NCBI GenBank assembly: GCA_963751455.1
Contig: CAVVUN010000012.1
Span: forward strand, 320,001 to 384,000
DNA from: Nitrospirota bacterium
Lineage (GTDB): Bacteria; Nitrospirota; UBA9217
Direction of reading: 5' to 3'
DNA: 64,000 bases
The notes under the pieces were generated by a model, which saw only the letters and a list, made by a program, of their open reading frames with translations, was not told the DNA's origin and did not search any database. Positions 952 through 41,369 of this stretch are shown piece by piece; the first letter of the stretch is position 1, and the number at the start of each line of letters is the position of its first letter. A program made the position numbers and the translations under genes.

Positions 952-2871
952 TTATAACTTTCTCATTTCGCCGCCGAACATTTCCACAACCTTATTTACC
1001 AAAGCCGTCAGCGAGGGGTCGCGCGCTCCCATGATAAGCACGCAGTCTTCCGGTTTCGCATCGAGTTTTAATGTTTTCAATAACTCGTCTCGGCTGTTGA
1101 GGGCTTGCGCATTGAATGGCGCGGGACCAAGGCCGTTTATGATATCTTCCGAGGAAATATTTTTTTGCGCCGTGCCTCCCGCATAATAGATCGGGAGGAG
1201 ATAGAGTGAATCATTTGGCCGGAACGCGGCTCGAAAAGTTTCGATGTATTCGTCTTTCAAAAACCGTGTAGGGCCGAAGCCATGCGGCTGATATACGGCC
1301 AGGATGCGTCCGGAAAGGCCTCGGGCTGCCCGAACAACAGCCGCTATTTTTGCCGGATTATGGGCAAAGTCATCAACCACATGCACGTTCGCTTTTGTTG
1401 CGGTGACGGAAAATCGCCGGGCCACACCCTCATAATTTTTTACCGCATGCGCAAGGGCAGACGGCTCGCAAGCGAAATACTCGCATACGCAGAGCGCAGC
1501 GCACAGGTTTTCAAGATTGTGCTCTCCGGGAAGCGGCAGATGATACTCAGTGCCGCTCCTGAATAATTTGACCGAAGTCGGGAGGAGTTGCTCCCGGTCC
1601 GGCCGCCACGAACCCGAGCCGTTTCGGCCGAAGCGCACGGTTGCAGGAAGCGAAGCAAGGACCGGATCGTCGGCGTTGGAGGCCGTCCAGGAAGATTGCG
1701 AAGCCAGCGTTTTGAAGAGTTTCGCAATGTCCTCAATGCTTTTGTGGTCCTTGGAAACATTCAGGATGACCGATGCTTCCGGACGATATTTGACCACGGT
1801 TCCATCGCTTTCGTCCGCCTCCACTACCAGGAGCTCGGACCCGCCGCTGTATGCATTGCCGATAAGGCCCTGTTTTTCGAGCCTGCGCAGGCCCGCGCCG
1901 CTGATCAACGATGGCGACTTTCCGCATGCGGTCAGGAATTCGAATATCATAGCAGTAACCGTCGACTTGCCGCTTGTGCCGGCGACTGCAATGGTCTTTT
2001 TTAGTCCGATGAGAGCGCTCAGCAGATCAGAGCGATGGACGATGGGAATGCCGCGGCTGCGGGCGGCTACAATATCCGGATTCGATTCTTCTATGGCGGT
2101 TGAAACGCAAATGACATGGGTATCCGCACTCACACCGGAACCGTCCTGCTGAACGATGGAGCACCCGAGGCTTTCAAGCGATTGCCGGATCGGGGCGGTA
2201 TCCTCGCTTGCATGGAAACGATCGGAACCCGAGACCGTGATTCCCTGAAAGCGCAGGTATTGCGCGAGAGCGCTCATGCCGCTGCCGAAAACTCCGGTAA
2301 AATGAACGTTGCGGCATGGATGGCCGTTGATGACAATCGCGGGAGGATCGATATAGACCAGCGTACCTTCTCCGACGGTTTCAAACAGCCGGGTAATATC
2401 GAGATTGCGCATGCAGACGCACCCGTACGACAGGGGAGTTCCGATCAGGTCTTCTCTGCCGGTGCCGTGGATATAAATATAACGCTCATAGGAATCCACG
2501 CCCCCGCCCTTATTGATGCCCTCTTCAAGACCTTCGAGCCGCAGAATGCGGGTCAGGATGAGATTATCCCGGGTAAGACGGTGGTCCCAGTCGATGCCGG
2601 TATCCTCGCGGTCCGTGAAAATGCGACCTACGCGCGCGCCGGCTCCGAACTTTTCCCTGATCCGATGAAGACCGAGCGGCGTTTTGAGCGAGTTTTCCCG
2701 ATTGCCGATGCCGAAGCGGGAGGTCGAGGCGTCATATCGCTCGACGATGGTATCGTTCGAGCAGACAAGGAGCGTCTGTGTCTCGATGGATACGATGAGA
2801 AATAGATCGTGCGGGGCCGGTAAAAACTTCCGTATTTTTTCGTGAATACAGCGTAATCGGACTGTTTCCAT
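952..2871 (-). CDS. L,D-transpeptidase (YkuD-like) domain fused to a MurC/Mpl-family UDP-MurNAc ligase
   Basis: N-terminal KTPLG...IYIHGT...SYGCVCM (His/Cys catalytic motif). Downstream GVFGSGMSALA, VAGTSGKSTVT, VEADESDG and DDFAHNP are Mur ligase motifs. Confidence 0.9.
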   Translation of the reverse strand: METVRLRCIHEKIRKFLPAPHDLFLIVSIETQTLLVCSNDTIVERYDASTSRFGIGNRENSLKTPLGLHRIREKFGAGARVGRIFTDREDTGIDWDHRLTRDNLILTRILRLEGLEEGINKGGGVDSYERYIYIHGTGREDLIGTPLSYGCVCMRNLDITRLFETVGEGTLVYIDPPAIVINGHPCRNVHFTGVFGSGMSALAQYLRFQGITVSGSDRFHASEDTAPIRQSLESLGCSIVQQDGSGVSADTHVICVSTAIEESNPDIVAARSRGIPIVHRSDLLSALIGLKKTIAVAGTSGKSTVTAMIFEFLTACGKSPSLISGAGLRRLEKQGLIGNAYSGGSELLVVEADESDGTVVKYRPEASVILNVSKDHKSIEDIAKLFKTLASQSSWTASNADDPVLASLPATVRFGRNGSGSWRPDREQLLPTSVKLFRSGTEYHLPLPGEHNLENLCAALCVCEYFACEPSALAHAVKNYEGVARRFSVTATKANVHVVDDFAHNPAKIAAVVRAARGLSGRILAVYQPHGFGPTRFLKDEYIETFRAAFRPNDSLYLLPIYYAGGTAQKNISSEDIINGLGPAPFNAQALNSRDELLKTLKLDAKPEDCVLIMGARDPSLTALVNKVVEMFGGEMRKL

Positions 2872-2926
2872 AAGAAACTGCTGCTTTATCCTTTGTAAAA
2901 GTTTATTTCGAACGCTGTCCGGTTAT

Positions 2927-3090
2927 CCTGAAAAAAGCAGTTGGACACGGATAAAATCTGATCAACACGGATTTATAGGAAGTTACGAACAGTAATGGAT
3001 TCACCCAAAAGGCGAGATGGCTTTTTGCTCTATCACATTGTTTTGATCCGCTGTTTCCGTGTTCATCCGTGTTCAAATGCCGTTTTTAGG
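2927..3090. mobile_element. MITE family 1, copy A
   Basis: CCTGAAAA...TTTTAGG ends, long imperfect palindromic arms, central TCACC-loop-GGYGA hairpin, flanked by the direct repeat GTTAT (2922-2926 / 3091-3095). Confidence 0.8.
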
Positions 3091-3218
3091 GTTATAGATG
3101 CCTGGCACTAGTCTCCTTCGCAAAATACTGTATTTTAAAGAAAACGACAAGAGAAAAAAGAAGAGCTGCAGCGTTGTCAGCCTTGCAGGTTGAATGGATT
3201 CGGAGGCGGAATAAAAAA

Positions 3219-4139
3219 TTAATGCATAGAGACCAGGCCCGGTTGGCTACTGGCCTGCTCAGGTGAAACCGTCCGGACGCCCCCTGCACCGGGCCTTTGG
3301 AGCAAAGCGGCCGACTCGAGGTTAATGCCGATCTCGGCAAGCATCAGCGTGCTTCTCCATAAGCTGTTCCTGGAGCGCGCGCCGAGAACAGCGGTATAAA
3401 AGGGGCCCTTGTCCGTGTCGATCGCGCAAACGAAACAGTGCCGCGCATCACCCGTATAACCTGTTTTCCCGATGAAATTGTCCTTTTTCCAGAGCAGATC
3501 GTTCGAGTTCTCCACAACGATTACCCTCCCCGTGGAGGTCGTGACAATCCATATTTTTTTGGAGAGAATATCCTTTATGAGAGGATAAGCAAACGCGGCC
3601 TTCATAATGAGCGCAAGATCGCTTGCTGTCGTGTATTGTATCCCTTCAGGAAGGCCGGTTGCGTTTGCAAATAACGTTTTTTTCGTCCCGATATCTTTGG
3701 CTTTCCTGTTCATGAGCGCCACGAATTCCCGCTCCGTACCGGCGGCAGCCTCGGCAAGGGCGACTGCCGCGGAATTGATGGACTTCATAAGCGCAAGATG
3801 AAGAAGATCGGAAACAGCCATTTCTTCATCAAAATATATTTTCGGCGGAATGGTCTTGACCTTTGCGGCTTTTCTGCTGACCCTTACTTTGAGTGATGGC
3901 TCGAGCTGGTCGAGCACAACCATGGCGGTAACGAGCTTGACCGTGCTGGCGGGTGCGAGTTTTGCGTCGGGGTATTTTGAATAAACCACGGTGCCGGCGG
4001 AATCCATGAGCACGGCAGCCTCTGCCGGGATCGCGTTCCGCGGTTTAGCGGAGACCGCGGGTTCCCCTATGAGGAACAGGATTGAGAACGCAAAAGCAAG
4101 ACAGAGGTATTTAAACGCGGCCGCCCTAGAGATGTCCAT
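3219..4139 (-). CDS. D-alanyl-D-alanine carboxypeptidase (peptidase S11)
   Basis: Signal peptide; SxxK (ASTVK), SxN (SIN) and KTG motifs. Confidence 0.92.
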   Translation of the reverse strand: MDISRAAAFKYLCLAFAFSILFLIGEPAVSAKPRNAIPAEAAVLMDSAGTVVYSKYPDAKLAPASTVKLVTAMVVLDQLEPSLKVRVSRKAAKVKTIPPKIYFDEEMAVSDLLHLALMKSINSAAVALAEAAAGTEREFVALMNRKAKDIGTKKTLFANATGLPEGIQYTTASDLALIMKAAFAYPLIKDILSKKIWIVTTSTGRVIVVENSNDLLWKKDNFIGKTGYTGDARHCFVCAIDTDKGPFYTAVLGARSRNSLWRSTLMLAEIGINLESAALLQRPGAGGVRTVSPEQASSQPGLVSMH

Positions 4140-4332
4140 ATATAAAATAGCGAGATGAAGGAAATGCTTTAAATTGTAATTCTTTGTTCCTGCCCCGTAG
4201 GCGAGCCAATATTAAACCGAGAAGAGGACTTCGTCAAGAATATAGTTCAAGCAAGGATAGGGTGTAGTTGGGCGTGAGGCCGGGGAGATCGGGAAAAAAT
4301 CCGAGAACCGGTATGGATCGGATATGTGTGTT

Positions 4333-5208
4333 TTAAAGTGACCTGGATGATTTACGTTTTCTCGTCTTCGTGGCTTGTCTCTCTTCCGCTGTCTCCACTG
4401 ACGGAACAAAGTCAGGTTCAGATGTCAGATTGACCAGCACCGAGGTGCTTTTCCATAACTTTCTCCGGGAAGGCGCTCCGAGAACCGCGGCATAAACAAG
4501 TCCCTTCTCCGTTTCTATCGCCCCTACGAAGCAGTGTTGAGCCGTGTTCGTGAACCCCGTCTTTCCGCCAACCATGTCGTCTCTGTACCACAGCAGCGCA
4601 TCGGTGTTTCCAAAGCTTAATTTTCGTCCTTGAACCGTAGTGATGACTGCCGTTTTTTTGCCGATGATCTCCCGGATAAGCGGATAGGTAAGCGCCTTTT
4701 TCAGGATGGTCGTTAGATTGAGGGCTGTTGTATGCTGTTCCGTGCCGGGAAGCCCGGATGCGTTCCTGAAATCGGTGTCATTCGCCCCGATCTCCTGAGC
4801 TTTCCGGTTCATCACTACCACAAAATACTCTTCGGTTTGGCTTGTGGCTTCCGCCAAAGCAACGGCAGCAGCGTTGCTGGATTTCATTAAGGCGAGATGG
4901 AGCAGGTCGGATACGGTAACCTGGTCGCCTGCCTTAAGCCGCGGCCTCCCTGAACGCGTCCTTGCAGCAGTGCTGCTGACCGTCACGACGGCCGCCGGAT
5001 CCAGGCTATCCAGAGCTACCATGGCGGTCATCAGTTTTACGGTACTGGCGGGAGGCAGCTTTGTGGAGGCGTTTTTCGAGAACAGGATAGTGTCGTCGGC
5101 ACCAAGGATAACGCAAGCCTTCGCACGGATGGCCCTTGGCGAAAAAGAATAAGCAGGTCGGGCCAGGAAGAGAAACCCGATAATCACAAAAAATAAAATT
5201 CTTCTCAT
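4333..5208 (-). CDS. D-alanyl-D-alanine carboxypeptidase (peptidase S11), tandem paralogue
   Basis: ASTVK, SSN and GKTG motifs; signal peptide begins at MRRILFF (ATG 5208); basic C-terminal tail. Confidence 0.92.
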   Translation of the reverse strand: MRRILFFVIIGFLFLARPAYSFSPRAIRAKACVILGADDTILFSKNASTKLPPASTVKLMTAMVALDSLDPAAVVTVSSTAARTRSGRPRLKAGDQVTVSDLLHLALMKSSNAAAVALAEATSQTEEYFVVVMNRKAQEIGANDTDFRNASGLPGTEQHTTALNLTTILKKALTYPLIREIIGKKTAVITTVQGRKLSFGNTDALLWYRDDMVGGKTGFTNTAQHCFVGAIETEKGLVYAAVLGAPSRRKLWKSTSVLVNLTSEPDFVPSVETAEERQATKTRKRKSSRSL

Positions 5209-26837: not shown

Positions 26838-28736
26838 TTATTTGAGTTCTCCCCCGGCGTCACCCGCCGCTTTGAGCGCGGGATTCGAGGTGTACAGGAC
26901 AACCTGGGTCTTGGCGCCTAAAGCCCGGAGGACCTGGCAGGCAGCCTGCTGGCGTACCGGATCAAAACCGGCGAGCGGGTCATCGAGGATGAACGGCAGT
27001 CTCCGTTTTCCCGCCAAGGCTTCGATCAGCCCGGTCCTCAGACAGAAATAAATAACATCCCGCGTGCCGTGGCTCAAGTCTTCGAAATGAACGACGGAGT
27101 CGTCCTTCGCATGAACGACCGGAGATCCTTCATGCCCCGCCTCGACACGAACGTACCTTCCGCCCGTTATCGCCGCCAGGTTTCGCTGCGCGGCAGCCTC
27201 GACAGCTGCGATCAGCGTATCCATCTCTATACCGCCGATGCGGCTCGCGGTGGCGAGCTCGGCCAGAATTCCCGCATGAGCCGCAGCAGGCGGCGCAATA
27301 ACCATGACGTCTTCGGAAAGCTCCGGTCCTGCACCGCGTTCCGGCGCGCCTGTCGCGACGGCCAGTTCCGTTTCCAAACGCTCGATATCCTGCCGGAGGC
27401 TGTAGGCGTCGACTGCATCGTTTGCCAGGGCTGCGGCATTTTTTTCCAGGTCCATTACTTCCTGCTGCATCTGTTCATACCGGGTTTGGAGTTCTTCCCG
27501 GGTGGCATCCCCGAGAATGCGTTCCCTCTGGCCTGTCAGGTCCTCTTGCAGCGATAAGAAATACCGGTAGTTCCCGGCCTTGTCTTCCAGTTCGGACGTC
27601 GTGGAAGACCCGGTTGCCTTCATGCATTCAAGAATGGCTGCTCCACCCTGTTCAAAGCTCTTTTCCGTGCCCGAGAGGTCCGCCTCCAGGATCTTGACCT
27701 CATTGACGATCAGCTTTCGCTGGGCATTTTTCCGCGAGCCGTTATACCACGCGATGGCGATCAGAAACAGGGAAAACAGTATCCCGATCGGAAAATATTC
27801 CGCGGGGATCAAGGTGGGAAGAAACAGTCCGATCGCAAGCGATGCGGCCCCTGCCAGGGCGCCGACGAGAAATAACTTGTCGGACAGGAGTGAGTACACG
27901 GGCATTTCGTCCAGCTGGTTTTGCAGTCCTTCTATCTCCTGGGTCAACTTATCGGTTTCAGCCATTTTCTGGCCCTGGCGCATTTCATGTTCTTTTATAA
28001 GATCGTTCAGGTTTTCGGGAAGCGTCTCGCATCCCTTGAGAGCCGCGAACTGCGACTGGAGGTCTTCCCGCCGCGCCTGTATTTCTTCGAGAGAGTCCAG
28101 CTTCTTTCGCAGTTCCTCGAGCTTCAGTTTGGCGGCATGAGCGCGATAGTCTGCATCGGCCGCTTCCTCCGCCTTCCGGAGCGCTTCCCGACGTTCCGCG
28201 ATCCGGGCCTCGAGTGGTGCGGTTGAGTTTCTTTGCGCCGGCTTCGTCACGACCGGGCGGACGGAAGCAGTAATGGCGCGGTTCACGGACCGCCCGCGCA
28301 ACCCGTTGTAGTGGTCGCGGCGCAGGATAAATAACTTCGTAAACTCCTCTTCGGTAATGCCGGCAGTCAAACTGCCCATGAATTGGATGGTGTTGTCCCA
28401 GTCCTTATACAGGAGACTGAAATCCTTGGTTTCGGGATTGTACTTCGAGAGGTTGACCGCGCATTTCGAGAAGTCCTCGATCACACGGTAATAGGCGCCA
28501 TCGTCGGAGAACGCGACCAGCGCCGCCCGCGAAGCGTCGGGCGTGTATTTCGACAGGAGGCCCGCTGTGACCGCGGGATCGCTGATCGGGAAAAGCAGGC
28601 GGACGATCGTGTCCGCGGACGAAGTCTTTCCCGATTCGTTTCCGGCGGCAATGAAATTGAATCCGCCCTGAAATCTCAGGCGGGAAAGTTCACGGATGCC
28701 GCGCACTCCCTGCATCACAAGCTCCACAAGGAACAT
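26838..28736 (-). CDS. SMC/Rad50/YhaN-like coiled-coil ATPase with two central TM helices
   Basis: Walker A-like GNESGKT, long coiled coils, signature LSHGTRD, Walker B PFILDDP; hydrophobic hairpin in mid-protein. Confidence 0.8.
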   Translation of the reverse strand: MFLVELVMQGVRGIRELSRLRFQGGFNFIAAGNESGKTSSADTIVRLLFPISDPAVTAGLLSKYTPDASRAALVAFSDDGAYYRVIEDFSKCAVNLSKYNPETKDFSLLYKDWDNTIQFMGSLTAGITEEEFTKLFILRRDHYNGLRGRSVNRAITASVRPVVTKPAQRNSTAPLEARIAERREALRKAEEAADADYRAHAAKLKLEELRKKLDSLEEIQARREDLQSQFAALKGCETLPENLNDLIKEHEMRQGQKMAETDKLTQEIEGLQNQLDEMPVYSLLSDKLFLVGALAGAASLAIGLFLPTLIPAEYFPIGILFSLFLIAIAWYNGSRKNAQRKLIVNEVKILEADLSGTEKSFEQGGAAILECMKATGSSTTSELEDKAGNYRYFLSLQEDLTGQRERILGDATREELQTRYEQMQQEVMDLEKNAAALANDAVDAYSLRQDIERLETELAVATGAPERGAGPELSEDVMVIAPPAAAHAGILAELATASRIGGIEMDTLIAAVEAAAQRNLAAITGGRYVRVEAGHEGSPVVHAKDDSVVHFEDLSHGTRDVIYFCLRTGLIEALAGKRRLPFILDDPLAGFDPVRQQAACQVLRALGAKTQVVLYTSNPALKAAGDAGGELK

Positions 28737-28868: not shown

Positions 28869-30389
28869 CTAGAGCCGTTCCAGGGCCTTTTTAAGCGCCT
28901 CCGCCTTCTGGAGGGTTTCGAGATACTCGCTCCGGGGGTCGGAATCCGCGACAATGCCGGCGCCGACCTGTATGAAGGCCAGCCCGTCTTTTATTACGAA
29001 CGTCCTTATGATGATGTTCAGGTCCATGTCACCAGCGTTCGAAATATAGCCGATCGAACCCGTATACGGCCCGCGTGCTACCGGCTCCAGTTCGTCGATT
29101 ATCTCCATGCACCTTACTTTCGGCACCCCCGTGATCGTGCCTCCGGGAAAGACTGCGCGCACGACATCGAAAGCATCCATCCCCTTTGCCAGATCGCCCC
29201 GCACGTTCGAGACGATGTGGATGACGTGCGAGTAATCCTCGACCACCATCATTTCATCGACCCGCACCGACCCGTACTCGCACACCTTTCCCAGATCATT
29301 CCGCTCCAGGTCGAGCAGCATTATGTGCTCCGCGCGCTCTTTTTCATTCATCAGAAGCTCGGCCGAAAGTTTGTCTGTCTCGGCCCGGTCCCTGCCCCGG
29401 CGCCGGGTGCCCGCTATCGGCCGGGTATCGACGGCGCCGTTAACGAGTCGGACAAGACGCTCCGGGGAAGAACTGACGAGCTGCAGGTCCCCGAAGTCGA
29501 GGTAAGCGGCAAAAGGGGAAGGATTGATTTCGCGGAGTACGCGGTAAAGCCGCAGAGGGTCGGAATCGTGCAGCTCGACCGAAAGGCGCTGAGACAGGTT
29601 TGCCTGGTAGATGTCGCCGGCCGCGATGTATTCCTTGCAGCGCAAAACCATGGACTCGAACACCCCGCCCGTAATGTTCGGCTCAAGCGAGGCAGCCGCG
29701 CTTTTTCCGGCGGCCGCGGACAGGGGGGTATCTTTTTCCGCGGCTACGGCTGCGCTGATTTCCGCGATCTTTTGCGTTGCCCCGTCATAGAGACGGCCAC
29801 CCTCGGTCTTCTCCATCCTGCGGAAACCCATCTCCTGCTCCCGGGCGCCCGGGTTCACGATCACCCATATTTTTTGCTGGATGTGGTCGAATGCTATGAC
29901 AAAGTCCACAAATACAAAATACGACTCGGGAATATCCAAATCGCGTACGGCATTCCGGGGGATTTGTTCGAACTGGCGGACAAAGTCATAGGAAAAGAAC
30001 CCGAGTGCGCCGCCGGTAAACGGCGGAAGGCCGGGCACGCGCTCTGTTCTATAGTTTGACATCAGCTCACGGAGCTTGACCAGAGGTTTTCGGCGCATCG
30101 AGGCGCGTCTGCCGAACTTTCCCTCGGGCGTGGCCGGCAAATGCAGTTCGACCGTATCTGCGTGAGACCGGAATATGAGATAAGGACCTGCAGTTACATA
30201 GGAATATCTGCCGATTTTGTCGTTCACGCGCGCACTCTCGAGCAGCATGGGATACCCTTGCGTACGGACGGCTTCGAGGGCCATAAACGGCGTCACGCCG
30301 CTCGCTTCCAGCTCAACGGAAACGGGAAGGATCTTGCCGGATTGCAGTGATCGGACAAATTCGTCTTTTAAGGGCCGGACTGTTTTCAT
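28869..30389 (-). CDS. Chorismate-binding enzyme, component I (PabB/TrpE family)
   Basis: LLESA, GDIYQAN, NPSPF, SSSPE, PIAGT, EHIMLLDLERND, FPGGTITGVPK, GAGIV. PabB versus TrpE not resolved; start uncertain (30389 or 30425). Confidence 0.9.
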   Translation of the reverse strand: MKTVRPLKDEFVRSLQSGKILPVSVELEASGVTPFMALEAVRTQGYPMLLESARVNDKIGRYSYVTAGPYLIFRSHADTVELHLPATPEGKFGRRASMRRKPLVKLRELMSNYRTERVPGLPPFTGGALGFFSYDFVRQFEQIPRNAVRDLDIPESYFVFVDFVIAFDHIQQKIWVIVNPGAREQEMGFRRMEKTEGGRLYDGATQKIAEISAAVAAEKDTPLSAAAGKSAAASLEPNITGGVFESMVLRCKEYIAAGDIYQANLSQRLSVELHDSDPLRLYRVLREINPSPFAAYLDFGDLQLVSSSPERLVRLVNGAVDTRPIAGTRRRGRDRAETDKLSAELLMNEKERAEHIMLLDLERNDLGKVCEYGSVRVDEMMVVEDYSHVIHIVSNVRGDLAKGMDAFDVVRAVFPGGTITGVPKVRCMEIIDELEPVARGPYTGSIGYISNAGDMDLNIIIRTFVIKDGLAFIQVGAGIVADSDPRSEYLETLQKAEALKKALERL

Positions 30390-30538
30390 TATAAAAGATG
30401 TTTGTTGCTCATCGCGGCGAGTCAAGCTTCCAGGTTGACCTGAAATGCGGGCGCGCCGCTTATCAATAAAGACAAAATTTTAAAGGCAATTCCCCGGCAG
30501 GTCAAGATAATTCTCGAAAATTATCAGTGGTGCTTTTA

Positions 30539-30547
30539 TGCTATAAT
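30539..30547 (+). promoter_or_regulatory. Extended -10 promoter for ncRNA 1
   Basis: TGcTATAAT, a perfect extended -10, about 40 nt upstream of the structured region. Confidence 0.65.
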
Positions 30548-30565
30548 AAATTTATAGATTATTTA

Positions 30566-30577
30566 GATCTTTGAAAG
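30566..30577 (+). promoter_or_regulatory. boxA-like antitermination element
   Basis: GATCTTTGAAAG, about 20 nt after the -10, resembles the rrn-leader boxA form (G)A/TTCTTTGAAA. Confidence 0.45.
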
Positions 30578-30587
30578 ATTAATCAGT

Positions 30588-30882
30588 GAGGGCGTTGCCG
30601 AACCAACACCCAATAGGTGAACGTTCTAAACCCGTTTACAAGGGCGATAAGCGCCGACAACCGTTTCCTGCAACCGTGCAGAAAGACCGCAGTTCGGGCC
30701 TTTCTCTCTTTTGCAGGGTTTCGGTAAAACGGAAGTGCCAAAAGCTCGAAGTCCGGGTATGAGGGCAAAAGACGCAAGCTTCACAAGGTCCGCATGGCGG
30801 AGCAGCAGAAGCAGGTCTGATACCCGTTACTCAGCCGGGCTGAACGGAAGTTTAAAGAGATGGTTCGCTGGCAACGCCTTTT
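30588..30882 (+). ncRNA. Unidentified large structured RNA 1 (~295 nt)
   Basis: Fourteen mutually compatible helices found by eye, closed by GGCGTTGCC (30591-99) / GGCAACGCC (30870-78). Promoter upstream; no credible ORF. Confidence 0.75.
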
Positions 30883-30948
30883 ATAATTACAGAACGTGCT
30901 GCGCAGTTGGAATTAAAAAAACCGGAAAGGGTCGGTCAGAGCACTCGC

Positions 30949-30977
30949 TTGACAACCTTTTTTTGGGGTGCTATATA
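30949..30977 (+). promoter_or_regulatory. Sigma70 promoter for ncRNA 2
   Basis: TTGACA, 17-nt spacer ending in TGc, TATATA. Confidence 0.7.
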
Positions 30978-30994
30978 AAGACAAAGATCAAAAT

Positions 30995-31302
30995 GTTAAT
31001 CCAGCCCTTCGGAGGGTTGGATTAGCGAGGCGTTGCCGGGCCGTATTTTATTATCCGTTGAGAACTTCAAGCGTCGGCTTCTCCTGGTTTTTGATGTGAA
31101 GGCCATGTCGGTCGTGAGACCTTCTGGTTTCATGTTGAGGGCTTCGAAAAGTCCGAAGAGGCTGAAACTCCCTGGCCGGTGAATGATCAATGCAAACATT
31201 CTGCATTGGAATCGCGCAAGCGATTTCTGTGAAGAGTGATCATTGAACTTTCTCTGGTTCAACGATGCTATAAAATACGCGCCTTGGAAACGCCTTTTTT
31301 TT
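30995..31302 (+). ncRNA. Unidentified large structured RNA 2 (5' hairpin plus ~270-nt core)
   Basis: 14-bp hairpin at 30995-31026. Core closed by AGGCGTT/AACGCCT, CGTATTTTA/TAAAATACG and CGTTGA/TCAACG. GUGA and GCAA tetraloops, many G-U pairs on the + strand, ends in U8. Confidence 0.75.
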
Positions 31303-31352: not shown

Positions 31353-31925
31353 TTAAAAATAATAATGAATCCCCGCCTCAATTGAAACAGTATCTCCGTC
31401 GACATCAGGGTCCAGTGAAAAAGAAAATCCGTTTATTTCTATCTCGTCATACCGAATAAACCGGTAAATGAAACCGAGATTCAACGCCATATTTCTGTTC
31501 AAAAATCGCTCGAGTCCTGCGCCGAAATTCCATCCGCTGCCTTTCAGAGTCGTATCTGCTCCTTCAAAGGGATTATACTCGTCCAAAGAGTAGGACCCCA
31601 GGCCGAACAGAAAGTAGAACTGGTTGGGATCCACAACAGGGGACACAAAAACACGAAGATCGAGGGTGAACCCGTTGAAATCGGCGCTCCCGAATCCGGG
31701 GTCAGTATCCTCGTGATTGGAACCCATAAAGGCGCCTTCAAGCGCGACCTGGCCGAAATCATAACCGAATTTGAATTGAAGCCCTGTTCCTGCGTCGAGA
31801 TAATCGATATCCGAACTGCGGGGATTGTTAAAGACCAGCCCGGCGCCCACATACGGTCCTTCGTCGGCAGATGCAGGACTCAAACAGAGCAGTATGATCA
31901 GTGCTGATAAAGACAGAATCTTCAT
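31353..31925 (-). CDS. Outer-membrane beta-barrel (OmpA-like 8-strand) protein
   Basis: Signal peptide, GPYVGAG, FGYDF, NFGAG, C-terminal HYYF. Confidence 0.82.
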   Translation of the reverse strand: MKILSLSALIILLCLSPASADEGPYVGAGLVFNNPRSSDIDYLDAGTGLQFKFGYDFGQVALEGAFMGSNHEDTDPGFGSADFNGFTLDLRVFVSPVVDPNQFYFLFGLGSYSLDEYNPFEGADTTLKGSGWNFGAGLERFLNRNMALNLGFIYRFIRYDEIEINGFSFSLDPDVDGDTVSIEAGIHYYF

Positions 31926-32441: not shown

Positions 32442-35400
32442 GTGGCTGATATTCAGTCGTTCAGGAAAAACGTTCAGTCGTTAGTCGCAAAATTCGAGCA
32501 GGACAGAAACCATCACTGCTCAAAAGGCTATCCTGAAGCGCAGCTCCGCGTTGATTTCCTGAACCCGTTCTTCAATGCGCTCGGCTGGGACCTCGAAAAC
32601 CAGTCCAACAAACCGCCCCATGAACGAAACGTAATCGTCGAGCTTTCTCCTGAAACCACCCTCCGTCCTGATTACAATTTCCGAATAAACGGGGACACAA
32701 AATTCTTCGTTGAAGCAAAAGCGCCCTGGGTGCCGCTTGACGACGTGAACCACATTATGCAGGCAAAGACCTATGCCTGGTCCACCAAGGAGGTGTTCTT
32801 CGTAATTCTCACCGACTTCGAAGAGTTCAAGCTCTTCGATGCTTCTCTCAAGCCCAATCCCAAATATCCTCAGCGAAGGCCTTCTTTACGAATTCAAGTA
32901 TACTGACTTATCTTGATAATATCGAGAAGCTTTGGGAGCTTTCCAGGGAACGTGTGGAACAAGGATCGCTGGAAGCCCTGCTGCCCCGAGACCCGAAAAG
33001 CAAGCGACTAAGAATTCCGCCCGACAAGTCATTCCTCGAAGATCTGACCGCATGGCGCACAGAACTTGCCAAGGACATTCACAAGCGCAATCCGGAAATC
33101 GATGTCCATGTACTGAACGATGTTGTCCAGAAGCTTCTTGACCGCATCATCTTCATCCGCATAGCCGAGGACCGGAAGAGCAGACCGGAGCGCGAACTGT
33201 GGGAGATCGTGGCGCAATGGAAGGAAGAGGGCAAGCGCAAATCCATTATGCCCGCGCTCATCGATCTTTTCCGAGAGGTGAACGACGACCTGAACGGCGA
33301 CATCTTCAAGCCCCATGCCTGCGAGAGCGCGGCCGTCGATTCTGAAATCCTCGCGGACATCATCGATAATCTCTATTTCCCGAAAACGCGGTACCGGTTT
33401 GATGCAATCGGCGTGGAACTGCTGGGAAGCATATACGAGCGCTATCTCGGCAGCACAATCCGCGTCACACCAAAACAGGTCAAGGTAGAGGAAAAGCCGG
33501 AAGTAAAGAAAGCGGGCGGCGTTTTTTATACTCCGAAGTTCATTGTCAATTACATAGTCAAGAACACCGTCGGCAAACTTATCGAAGGCAAATCCCCGAA
33601 GCAGATCGAGAAAATAAAAATACTAGATCCGGCTTGCGGCTCCGGATCGTTTCTTCTAGGCGCATATCAATATCTCATTGATTATCATCTCAAGTATTAC
33701 CGTGACCATCCCAAAGACGCTCAAACCCTCTTTCTCGATATCTATGCAAAAGTAAACCCCGAAGACCTCGCCCTGCCACTTAAGGAAAAGGCGAAGATTC
33801 TGCGGAACAACATCTTCGGCGTGGACATCGATCCCCAGGCAGTCGAGATCACAATGATGAGCCTGTATCTCAAAGCACTTGAGGGCGAACGAGGCCTTCT
33901 GCCCCGAAAACAGCACCTTCTCCCATCTCTCACAAATAACATCAAATGCGGCAACAGCCTGATCGGATACGACATCTTCGATGCCCCCGACCAATATTCA
34001 TTATTATCCGTCATTCCAGCGAAGAATTTCGGCGAGCTCAGTCGAGGCGCTGGAATCCAGGGTTCTGGATCCGGATCAAGTCCGGGATGACAAAACAGGA
34101 ACAATGGTCAGACGAAGACCGCGCCCGTATCAACCCCTTCGACTGGACATCCAAATCCACCGGTTTCGGCGACATCCTGGAATCCGGCGGCTTCGACGCC
34201 GTAATCGGCAATCCGCCGTATGTAAGGCAGGAACTCCTCGGCGATTTCAAGAATTACTTCCAGCAGCATTATGAAGTCCTATCACGGGACGGCTGATCTC
34301 TACGCCTACTTCATTGAAAAGGGTGTTTCGCTCCTCAAAAAGGACGGCCTCTTCAGTTATATCGTTGCCAATAAGTGGATGCGCGCAAATTATGGCGAGT
34401 CACTGCGGAAGTGGATGAAGAAGCAGCGAATCGAAGAGATTACTGACTTCGGCGATTTACCGGTATTTGAAAATGCAACAACCTATCCCTGTATTGTGCG
34501 GATTCGGAAAGGAAATGCGGCCATAAAGTTTTCAGCTACGCAGGTGAAGACACTGGATTTCGCTAATCTTGCAGACTATGTTTCTGAACAATGTTATCGC
34601 AGTCAATAGAGCGGCTCTATCGGACGGCGGATGGGCATTAGTGGACGAGCAGTCACAAGCTTTATTGAATAAATTGCAAGCCATTGGAAAACCGCTAGGC
34701 GATTATGTTCAAGGTAAAATCTATCGTGGAGTACTGACAGGGCTTAACGAAGCCTTTGTGATCGATTCCGAGACCAAAAAGAAGCTTATAAAAGAAGACC
34801 GAAAAAGCTCAGAATTGATTAAACCCTTTCTGCTCGGGCGCGATGTAAAACGGTATGAATCGTCGAATGGCAACAATTATTTAATCTTCACTCGACGTGG
34901 TGTTGATATTAAGAAATATCCGGCCATCGAGGAACATCTATTGCCGTTCAAAAAAAGGCTTATGCCGAAACCGGCCGATTGGAAAGGCGGCGATTGGCCC
35001 GGACGTAAGCCAGGGCCTTATAAATGGTATGAAATCCAAGACACGATTGATTACTATGAAGAGTTTGAAAAGCCAAAGATCATGTGGCCCGAGATTGCGG
35101 GCAGTGCTCGGTTTGCCTACGACGATACCGGCTATTACGCGAACAATAAAGTCTTTATTATTCCAGACGGATCAAAATATTTGCTCGGTTTATTAAATTC
35201 TTCCCTCCTCCGTTTCTTTATCGAAAACAACTGCACAGACCTACAAGGCAATAGCTATAACTTTTCGGGTATATTCGTCAGCAGGACACCGATCCGCACC
35301 ATCGACTTGAATGACCCAACTGAAAAAGCAATTCATGACAAGCTCGTTTCCCTCGTAGATCGTATGCTTGACCTCCATAAAAAGAAAGCCGCTCTTCCTC

Positions 35401-35519
35401 CGTCCGCCGAACGCGAAAAAATCGAACGCGAGATCGCTGTGACGGATGAAAATATCGATGAAATTGTTTATAGGTTGTATGGGATTACGAAAGAAGAACG
35501 TAGAATCATAGGAGAGTAG
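32442..35519 (+). pseudogene. Type IIG (Eco57I-like) fused restriction-modification enzyme, broken by about five single-base indels
   Basis: PD..EAK nuclease (RPDY...VEAK), FYTP, ILDPACGSGSFL (motif I), IGNPPYV (motif IV), TaqI-like C-terminal TRD. Frame changes near 32872, 32909, 34071, 34278 and 34597; these may be assembly errors. Confidence 0.9.
34010..34091. repeat. REP/RPE-like palindrome inside the R-M coding sequence
   Basis: GTCATTCCAGCG...CGCTGGAATCCAG...CTGGATCCGGATCAAGTCCGGGATGAC, with the nested hairpin TTCGGCGAGCTCAGTCGAG (34028-34046). Confidence 0.8.
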
Positions 35520-35521
35520 CA

Positions 35522-36202
35522 GTGGATTATGACATTCCCGATGAAGAGGATCGTAAGTATAGAGATTTTGAAGAATACAATCTGCGTAAAAAATACGATC
35601 AATATTTAAAGCTGGCAAAGACAGAAAAAGAGATGCAAGTTTTTTTTGAAATTAACCCCATTTTTTTGCCAGGGCTTTACGATAGACACAACGGTCCGCT
35701 TGGTGATGTCGTAATCTCTAAGCTTGGACTAGCAGAGGAATATGAAACGGACTTCGCCTTTCTTTCAATTGATTCCGCAAGAATACAAATAACATTAATC
35801 GAAATAGAATCGCCTCGGTTAAAGATTTTTCGTAATTCCGATCATCATTTTACGTCTACCTTTAACAAGGCCATGCAGCAGATGCGCGATTGGATTGAGT
35901 GGGTACAAACTCATCAGGCCCATTTAAAAGAAGTGTTAAGAGATGTTTATTTTGGAAGTGTTTTTAGAAATCAGCATGTCATGACGAAGGTTATCGTTGT
36001 CGCAGGAAGAAGAAAAGATGTTGAGCGAAATTCTATCAGGGAAAAAAGATGGGCTGGCTTGAATGCATCTATTGCAAATAACGAAGTCGTAACTTACGAT
36101 CATCTTGCATATGGAATGGTCCCGTCTTTTTACCTTTTGAAAAATCTAATTTGCAGGCCTAAAAGATACGTGATGCAGACTCTGAGGCATATAAGATTTT
36201 AA
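35522..36202 (+). CDS. Shedu (SduA/DUF4263)-like nuclease
   Basis: E..Q.FF..NP, TDF, LIEIESP, AMQQ..DW, VVAGRR, VTYDHL. Confidence 0.78.
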   Translation: MDYDIPDEEDRKYRDFEEYNLRKKYDQYLKLAKTEKEMQVFFEINPIFLPGLYDRHNGPLGDVVISKLGLAEEYETDFAFLSIDSARIQITLIEIESPRLKIFRNSDHHFTSTFNKAMQQMRDWIEWVQTHQAHLKEVLRDVYFGSVFRNQHVMTKVIVVAGRRKDVERNSIREKRWAGLNASIANNEVVTYDHLAYGMVPSFYLLKNLICRPKRYVMQTLRHIRF

Positions 36203-40971: not shown

Positions 40972-41369
40972 TCTGCAAGCCTTGGATTTGATTGCTGCGA
41001 GGTAGTTGGGTGCGTTCGTTTTTATCTTTTCTTGATGAGATCCATTTATGGTAGATAAATTAAAAAAGGAGATCTGGTCCAATGGAAAACTGCAGCGCGA
41101 GGTCAGAGGCGAGTTAAGGAAGGTAAAGTTTTCGCTATAGTCCCTCCTGGCACTCACCTGCCGAAGCTGTTGAATTGGCTGGGCAGAGCGCAAGACACGA
41201 TGTTCAAGTCAGATTTGAATTAATGTTTTCTCATTTTGAGTATTGGACGCGAAAAGATATATCGTATTTAATACGAGTCGATGATAACGAGACGACTCCA
41301 ATGCCTAAGTTATATTGGCCTCGCGCGACATGGCTAAAAAAGTTACATTAGCCGATTCCCTCTAAACTT

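Follow-up and report, generated by a model that had tools for sequence, protein, structure and literature searches.

Large conserved RNAs are few in bacteria, and most of those that are understood do something central. OLE, ROOL, GOLLD and smtA (Soda Lake) are all large structured bacterial non-coding RNAs whose function is unknown or partly known (PMC12286853 and PMC11109978, in the parts available), and smtA is confined to one lineage (PMC11109978, same part). The raiA motif RNA (RF03072; ModT) is a stand-alone, trans-acting RNA and likewise a function orphan; its 5' and 3' ends are closed by a remarkably conserved helix P1, and its peripheral stems are dispensable (PMC12968392, available part). 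Among RNAs that bind RNA polymerase, Ms1 is about 300 nt long and abundant, and CoRP is restricted to a genus and was missed by structure searches (PMC11077062, available part).

A further point of reference is the leader of rRNA operons. In enterobacterial rRNA leaders boxA and boxC are separated by 18–19 nt, and in the model the exit channel retains boxC until the trailer appears. Altered boxA–boxC spacing has only modest effects, and the bound factors probably block intrinsic termination as well (PMC10250234, available part). A boxA consensus was given in a survey which, in the part available, left non-coding RNAs aside (PMC5725501).

Here we analyzed two adjacent units, U1 and U2, in a stretch of 64,000 nucleotides from a Nitrospirota bacterium, referred to as the window. 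They belong to a real, conserved family of stand-alone RNA genes with their own promoters and two architectures, called type A and type B, and this RNA lies outside every catalogued family. We found no description of it in the open literature, including the main text of PMC11109978, which in the part available makes no mention of Nitrospir*; a prior listing is possible in the supplements of PMC5737381 and PMC11109978 and in subscription papers, since these were outside the scope of the search.

Two paralogous RNA genes in the window

A sequence-only reading of the window had placed two structured units side by side, and both were confirmed by the sequence at the positions claimed for them (see table). 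U1 begins with GAGGGCGTTGCCG at 30588 and ends with GGCAACGCC followed by T4 and ATAA, finishing near 30886. U2 begins with GAGGCGTTGCCG at 31027 and ends with GGAAACGCC followed by T8 and ATAA. The exact 9-mer GGCGTTGCC occurs three times in the window, always within U1 or U2. As that reading had it, the ends of each unit pair: the predicted folds were matched in quality by 1 of 200 shuffles for U1 (z -3.3) and by none of 200 for U2 (z -6.3).

Features of the U1/U2 region, in positions of the window
Feature	Position	Strand	Basis and remarks
pabB/trpE-like chorismate-binding gene, divergent from U1	28869..30425	-	Pfam PF00425 and PF04715; marker of the conserved type A locus
Extended -10 promoter of U1 (TGn-TATAAT), TGCTATAAT	30539..30547	+	sequence; no recognisable -35
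boxA-like element in U1 leader (GATCTTTGA), predicted NusB/NusE site	30566..30574	+	motif match
U1, type A RNA gene, 294 nt	30589..30882	+	predicted fold; covariance-model scores
U1 closing helix P1	30590-30599/30870-30879	+	predicted fold
U1 hairpin P2	30607-30619	+	predicted fold
U1 conserved arm 2 tip (P11/P12 hairpin)	30778..30812	+	covarying pairs; match to a relative's 70-nt metatranscriptome contig
U2 promoter: -35 TTGACA, 17-nt spacer, TG + TATATA	30949..30977	+	sequence; failed consensus scan
Leader hairpin immediately before U2	30997..31024	+	self-complementary sequence
U2, type B paralogue, 272 nt (31027-31298) plus U8 tail	31027..31302	+	predicted fold; HMM; RNA-library contig
U2 closing helix P1	31028-31037/31286-31295	+	predicted fold; U2 has neither hairpin P2 nor boxA
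Outer-membrane beta-barrel gene, convergent, outside the system	31353..31925	-	PF13505; downstream gene differs among relatives

Some features attributed to the units from the letters alone had to be qualified. They had been called ORF-free, but short ORFs of 64–116 aa overlap U1 and U2; in 95 homologues, on the other hand, the ORF starts are scattered over many positions and the alignments have indels of any length. A near-consensus sigma70 promoter had been assigned to each unit. The promoters are indeed separate, but that of U1 is an extended -10 element lacking a recognisable -35 box, and that of U2, near consensus as TTGACA-17-TATATA, lacks the final T of the -10 box and was not flagged by a consensus scan. 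The next gene is convergent, as noted before, so that no gene follows on the same strand, and the claimed lack of tmRNA, RNase P and tRNA hallmarks was borne out: there was no ARAGORN call or signature motif on the units, the genome's tmRNA and RNase P motif being located on contig C15.

The interiors of the units had been described as folding extensively yet differing in sequence. Both do fold, but they are not unrelated: judged by sequence, U1 and U2 are paralogues of one family of Y-shaped RNAs of about 230–340 nt and are homologous along their whole length. Their global identity is 51%, with an alignment score above that of all 200 shuffles. A profile HMM made from five other divergent copies, with U1 and U2 excluded, matched U2 over its full length (E 1.3e-13) and also matched U1 (E 7.4e-10). 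The covariance model R1, built without U2, recovered U2 at full length with 29 bits, and the type B model R2, built without U1, scored U1 at 49 bits. With R1, a model that includes it, U1 reached 177.6 bits and ranked 95th of 96 type A matches. U1 is a divergent or degenerate member, having lost the usual AAGUUGA loop of arm 1 and with a U-tail that is short (5 of 8). A tree of 65 copies places type A, including U1, on one side of a branch with 100/99 support; U2, which joins by a long branch at a place that is not exactly sure and is read only as outside type A, is therefore apparently not a recent duplicate of U1.

The term tandem pair holds for the adjacency of U1 and U2 but is too narrow for the family, which is class-wide and has five copies in this genome: U1, U2, two others on contig C12 and one on C15. 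Three of them besides U2 are of type B. Behind the fifth copy (contig C15; L278:4525-5007) lies a darP ribosome-maturation gene that has a promoter of its own, a single instance.

Several side observations were made in the window and the genome. The U1 leader around boxA (30561-30573) and the U2 leader (30982-30994) form a 13-nt inverted repeat with 92% complementarity, which would allow pairing between the U2 leader and the boxA of U1; this may also be due to chance. The hairpin before U2 is absent from the leaders of the other copies listed. A restriction-modification gene at 32442-35519 (HSDR_N, N6 methylase and TaqI_C domains) is spread over four consecutive ORFs and thus seems to be broken or to contain frameshifts. 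Next come a Shedu SduA gene (35522-36202) and an ORF of 1394 aa, with a tRNA-Arg nearby at 41367; the region 32442-36202 together with the 1394-aa ORF looks like a defence island. ARAGORN called two tRNA-SeC genes, on contigs C1 and C13, and the copy on the small contig C13 looks atypical.

Fold, distribution and expression

The consensus structure consists of P1 with a short 3' bulge, P1b, a small P2 hairpin, a P3/P4 stem, a three-way junction and two long irregular arms, and the same parts plus the U-tail make up the predicted fold of U1. A covarying fold of the family is supported. In an alignment of 37 type A sequences, pairing is seen in 91.4% of the cells and both sides change in 37 of 69 pairs. 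Shuffles gave 20, with none of 500 reaching 37, and sliding the structure gave 14–18. In 22 type B sequences both sides change in 26 of 52 pairs, as compared to 13 in the control. These controls are lenient, since the structure was derived from the same sequences, being drawn on a family member, which gives it an advantage over slid controls, and the kin are related and not independent. Covariation, a check named in the sequence-only reading, thus exceeds the controls for both types.

The closing helix behaves differently from the arms. P1 reads GGCG(U/C)UGC / GCA(A/G)CGCC in 130 of 136 distinct copies, an invariance that is partly built into the search patterns and extraction rules; ten copies obtained from a whole-genome model search have the same P1 5' strand. 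Three type A copies had been dropped from the type B list before any counting, and the truncated copy L010:1-239 was left out. P1 does not covary, six of its nine pairs being without any variation, and its pairing therefore rests on wobble changes and folding. P1 is kept while other parts can be lost: U2 is devoid of P2, and variants of 235–255 nt are devoid of arm P7, the outer half of arm 1.

The RNA might also work independently of protein, like raiA, ROOL or GOLLD, as a compact or multimeric particle or as a catalyst, with P1 conserved for internal tertiary contacts. The resemblance to the closing helix and dispensable stems of raiA, the conserved unpaired nucleotides at the junctions and the lack of a linked partner gene all fit such an RNA. 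However, no pseudoknot or long-range pair was prominent among the 90 pairs with the highest mutual information in 94 type A copies (effective sequence number 52). A candidate pseudoknot between the P7 loop and P4 is complementary but does not covary (5.30 vs 5.29 shuffled) and was rejected, and few positions beyond P1 are invariant across types A and B. We consider a protein-independent RNA unlikely, although far from negligible.

Another possibility, that of a base-pairing small RNA, a CsrA/Hfq sponge or a cis-acting leader, is suggested by a conserved 7-nt loop in type A. Tandem or multi-copy paralogues are moreover common in base-pairing and sponge RNAs, as in RsmXYZ, OmrA/B and GlmY/Z. But the RNA is mostly paired, and neither U1 nor type B has kept the loop. 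GGA motifs number only three in U1 and two in U2, for which reason a CsrB/Rsm sponge was dismissed. Against a cis-acting leader, the downstream genes vary in identity and orientation among relatives, and the pabB promoter is located between U1 and pabB. All three variants of this idea appear highly improbable to us.

Within the genomes searched the RNA is confined to one class of Nitrospirota, and its host bacteria appear to be uncultured. R2 finds it in 63 of 64 genomes of the class to which the window belongs, in all 19 genera and in each of the 32 high-quality genomes. Copy number ranges from one to five, with 2–5 copies in 23 of the 64 genomes. In phylum-wide samples searched with R1 and R2 all 27 family genomes were matched, and 123 other Nitrospirota genomes yielded no full-length match with either model and one weak partial match with each. 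A 5'-end pattern scan over 56 of the 64 parts of the species collection returned 121 loci; 37 have a full-length profile match, all of them with Nitrospirota-type titles, and the other 84 match the short pattern only. Among metagenomes, 64 of 70 pattern loci were true family members. In viruses, where two of three scans covered 8/64 and 45/64 parts, none of 261 pattern-matched loci had a profile match above 8.4 bits, and blastn found none in plasmids and phages. A search of 151 genomes of another phylum, run without a positive control, gave no matches.

The RNA family is probably expressed, and it appears well expressed in one sediment metatranscriptome; signs of transcription, for which the sequence-only reading had suggested looking, were found in metatranscriptome contigs. 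These contigs come from one study and were found through this sequence, so they show presence in an RNA library and not strand, ends or level. Support for transcription of U2 itself is a single contig of metatranscriptome X2, 155 nt long with one mismatch, located at 31127-31281 at a depth of 5.6; the flanks in the window are uncovered, and uncovered parts are uninformative. At a relative's type A locus (L002) all 24 X2 contigs fall into 4 of 30 bins, which are those holding the RNA. The main contigs reach depths of 1,358–4,896, and the 26 remaining bins, including pabB, are empty. One X2 contig begins inside boxA, indicating that some molecules at least carry the leader. Runs X1, X3 and X4 may be DNA and were left out of this evidence.

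Two gene architectures

In most of the relative loci listed, with few exceptions, type A is arranged head-to-head with pabB. Of 92 type A copies, 90 have an extended -10 element (at least 5 of 7 positions) 43–100 nt ahead of P1. Between promoter and helix lies boxA, which was detected in 91 of 92 type A leaders as compared to 0 of 40 in type B; a pattern somewhat stricter than this one turns up by chance in 0.6% of windows of 60 nt. Its end is located 16–23 nt before P1 in 78 of the 91 copies. The same motif is present after the 16S rRNA promoters and in the 16S–23S spacer of this genome, which also encodes NusB. These are features of a Nus-factor (boxA) transcription unit, and binding of NusB/NusE is predicted from the motif.

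The 3' ends differ as well. At least six U within 8 nt after P1 were found in 83 of 87 type A copies vs 18 of 39 type B copies, R1 itself including four terminal U. The distribution of separate hairpin terminators is reversed, with 14 of 87 in type A vs 31 of 39 in type B, as scored by a crude terminator finder that gave 0 of 38 in shuffled controls. Of 34 type B copies scored, 23 have a -10 box 6–9 nt ahead of P1, so that transcription would start at the helix. U2 is exceptional among type B in having a U8 tail and no separate terminator.

Three further observations concern boxA and the rRNA leader. The SRP RNA gene (contig C3 near 410490) is preceded by a boxA-like GTTCTTTAA. A boxA-like motif lies within 80 nt of only 1 of 53 tRNA genes in this genome. 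The 8-mer AATAGGTG in P2 of U1 (30611-30619) is also found after boxA in the 16S leader (contig C2), where it could pair with the 16S trailer; its occurrence in both places may be chance or a trace of an origin from an rRNA leader.

Most type B copies are scattered among unrelated genes, with a few in tandem behind type A, and the 49 proteins encoded beside them revealed no shared neighbour gene. Fourteen type B copies from several genera are 67–92% identical, with homology extending about 95 nt upstream and past the terminator. Dispersal and homology beyond both ends would suit a selfish or mobile element, either MITE-like or a self-amplifying RNA, with P1, which shows little covariation, as the terminal inverted repeat serving as recognition site. 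Type A, by contrast, occupies one syntenic locus and has its promoter and boxA outside the repeat. The copies per genome are few, and target-site duplications, which the sequence-only reading had associated with MITEs, do not exceed 4 nt in any of 136 copies; a MITE or non-autonomous transposon was rejected on these two grounds. Only one transposase and no reverse transcriptase were found among the 49 neighbours, and the viral, plasmid and phage searches yielded nothing. We disfavour a mobile element and regard it as very unlikely. A retron msr-msd or enzyme-linked guide RNA was discarded too, there being no reverse transcriptase or nuclease among the 49 type B neighbours or beside U1 and U2.

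In the type B cassettes L331, L329, L328, L332, L333, L330, L337, L318 and L316 a conserved TAAAGTACTAAC-like element is located about 95 nt upstream of P1, and a conserved word is also found after the terminator; the element is a possible regulator site. Two type B copies adjoin a prismane (hcp-like) gene.

Proposed role and comparison with known RNAs

The proposal of paralogous, separately promoted, trans-acting structured RNAs with a common closing stem, made from the letters alone, is supported. As the best explanation we tentatively favour, at somewhat less than even confidence and in keeping with the protein-scaffold alternative of that reading, that U1 and U2 are paralogous genes of a class-wide, Y-shaped, stable scaffold or decoy RNA of about 300 bases that acts in trans, P1 being predicted to dock one shared protein. 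For type A, RNA polymerase would acquire Nus factors at boxA, as it does on rRNA operons, and would keep the P1 5' strand at its exit channel in a boxC-like manner. P1 would close once its 3' strand emerges, and P1 plus the U-tract would end transcription. Type B would mostly start at P1, free of boxA, and use a separate terminator; such copies may be differently regulated versions of, or competitors for, the same partner. A function is proposed for P1 because it is the sole element that all variants keep, even those in which termination and leader removal can do without it.

Several points weigh against this scaffold reading. P1 itself does not covary, U1 is degenerate with its short U-tail, the evidence for expression comes from contigs of one study, and changes of boxA–boxC spacing had only modest effects. 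The anti-termination attributed to the bound factors (PMC10250234, available part) sits uneasily with termination at P1 plus U under a Nus complex. In addition no binding partner was found: KhpA/B, tried as a candidate, was not found in this genome, nor was Ro60/Rsr (TROVE, PF05731), although the genome is 100% complete, and with it the idea of a bacterial Y RNA, prompted by a GCCGAA motif, was abandoned. The neighbouring SMC-like protein was likewise rejected as a partner: 26 of 27 family genomes encode it, but so do sister lineages, in which 8 loci around it have no RNA match. This 632-aa SMC/AAA_23-like protein (26838-28736) has a central hydrophobic stretch and is encoded between pabB and tmk; in sister lineages it is patchy and found near glmU/glmS-like genes.

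A wider interpretation, which we put forward as doubtful, is that the family represents a new class of stable housekeeping RNA: a non-ribosomal gene made and folded by an rRNA-type Nus complex, with a P1 that would both terminate and dock a protein and with paralogues that would share the dock and swap the arms of a class-unique modular RNP. Natural variants, in which P2 and arm P7 are dispensable and P1, P4 and the junction are not, indicate where experiments could best be aimed. The contrast of types A and B offers a natural test, outside rRNA operons, of boxA-bound Nus factors delivering a 5' strand to its 3' partner.

Rfam 15 gave no matches at the gathering score in the window, in line with the novelty supposed by the sequence-only reading, and at E up to 10 only chance matches (E 1.2–5.8) were obtained in the region and 13 homologous loci. 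That reading had suggested a 6S/Ms1-like role at RNA polymerase, and a lineage-specific polymerase-binding RNA like Ms1 or CoRP would fit a size near that of Ms1, the paired ends, the apparent abundance and, as for CoRP, the lineage restriction (PMC11077062, available part). However, 6S RNA (RF00013) is not on the units; the canonical 6S RNA of this genome is encoded on contig C2 (106 bits, the sole match at E up to 1), and in the available part of PMC11077062 there is one type of abundant polymerase-binding RNA per species tested. Neither the window nor the 13 homologous loci had a 6S or Ms1 match at E up to 10, and the consensus shows a Y with two long arms in place of a large central bubble. 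The suggestion thus fares poorly, and we judge such a role improbable.

Other resemblances are partial. The large (Alu-type) SRP RNA has a similar length, a Y-like outline and a hairpin near the 5' end, but there is no SRP match on the units, and the helix-8 motif is not conserved in arm 2, whose internal loop varies. An ordinary SRP RNA is located elsewhere in each of 15 family genomes searched, here on contig C3, and a split SRP was rejected as the SRP model matches in the class resemble those elsewhere in the phylum. Base-pairing with rRNA was also rejected, 11 conserved words yielding only scattered 7–8-mers in the rRNA operon. Mimicry of tRNA-Cys was considered because the first four pairs and the next U resemble its acceptor stem, but a T-arm and CCA are lacking, and in type B the U is variable.

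With OLE, ROOL, GOLLD and smtA the family shares the character of a large structured RNA and, with smtA, confinement to one lineage. It differs in having no Rfam match and no linked partner gene found, in being shorter than ROOL and GOLLD and in its absence from the phage collections searched. The likeness to raiA, of which this genome has no match at E up to 1, is one of design and not of sequence in P1. While raiA has two pseudoknots, none was detected here, and the KhpA/B that binds raiA was not found. The family is set apart further by its single Nitrospirota class, its paralogues and the boxA leader of type A. In this last respect it resembles the rRNA operon leader: type A carries the same boxA as the 16S leader and spacer of this genome, and the 5' strand of P1 is located at about the distance of boxC. 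In contrast to the rRNA leader, the RNA enclosed is about 300 nt, the sequence of the closing helix is conserved and the helix probably stays in the product, and type B copies have no boxA.
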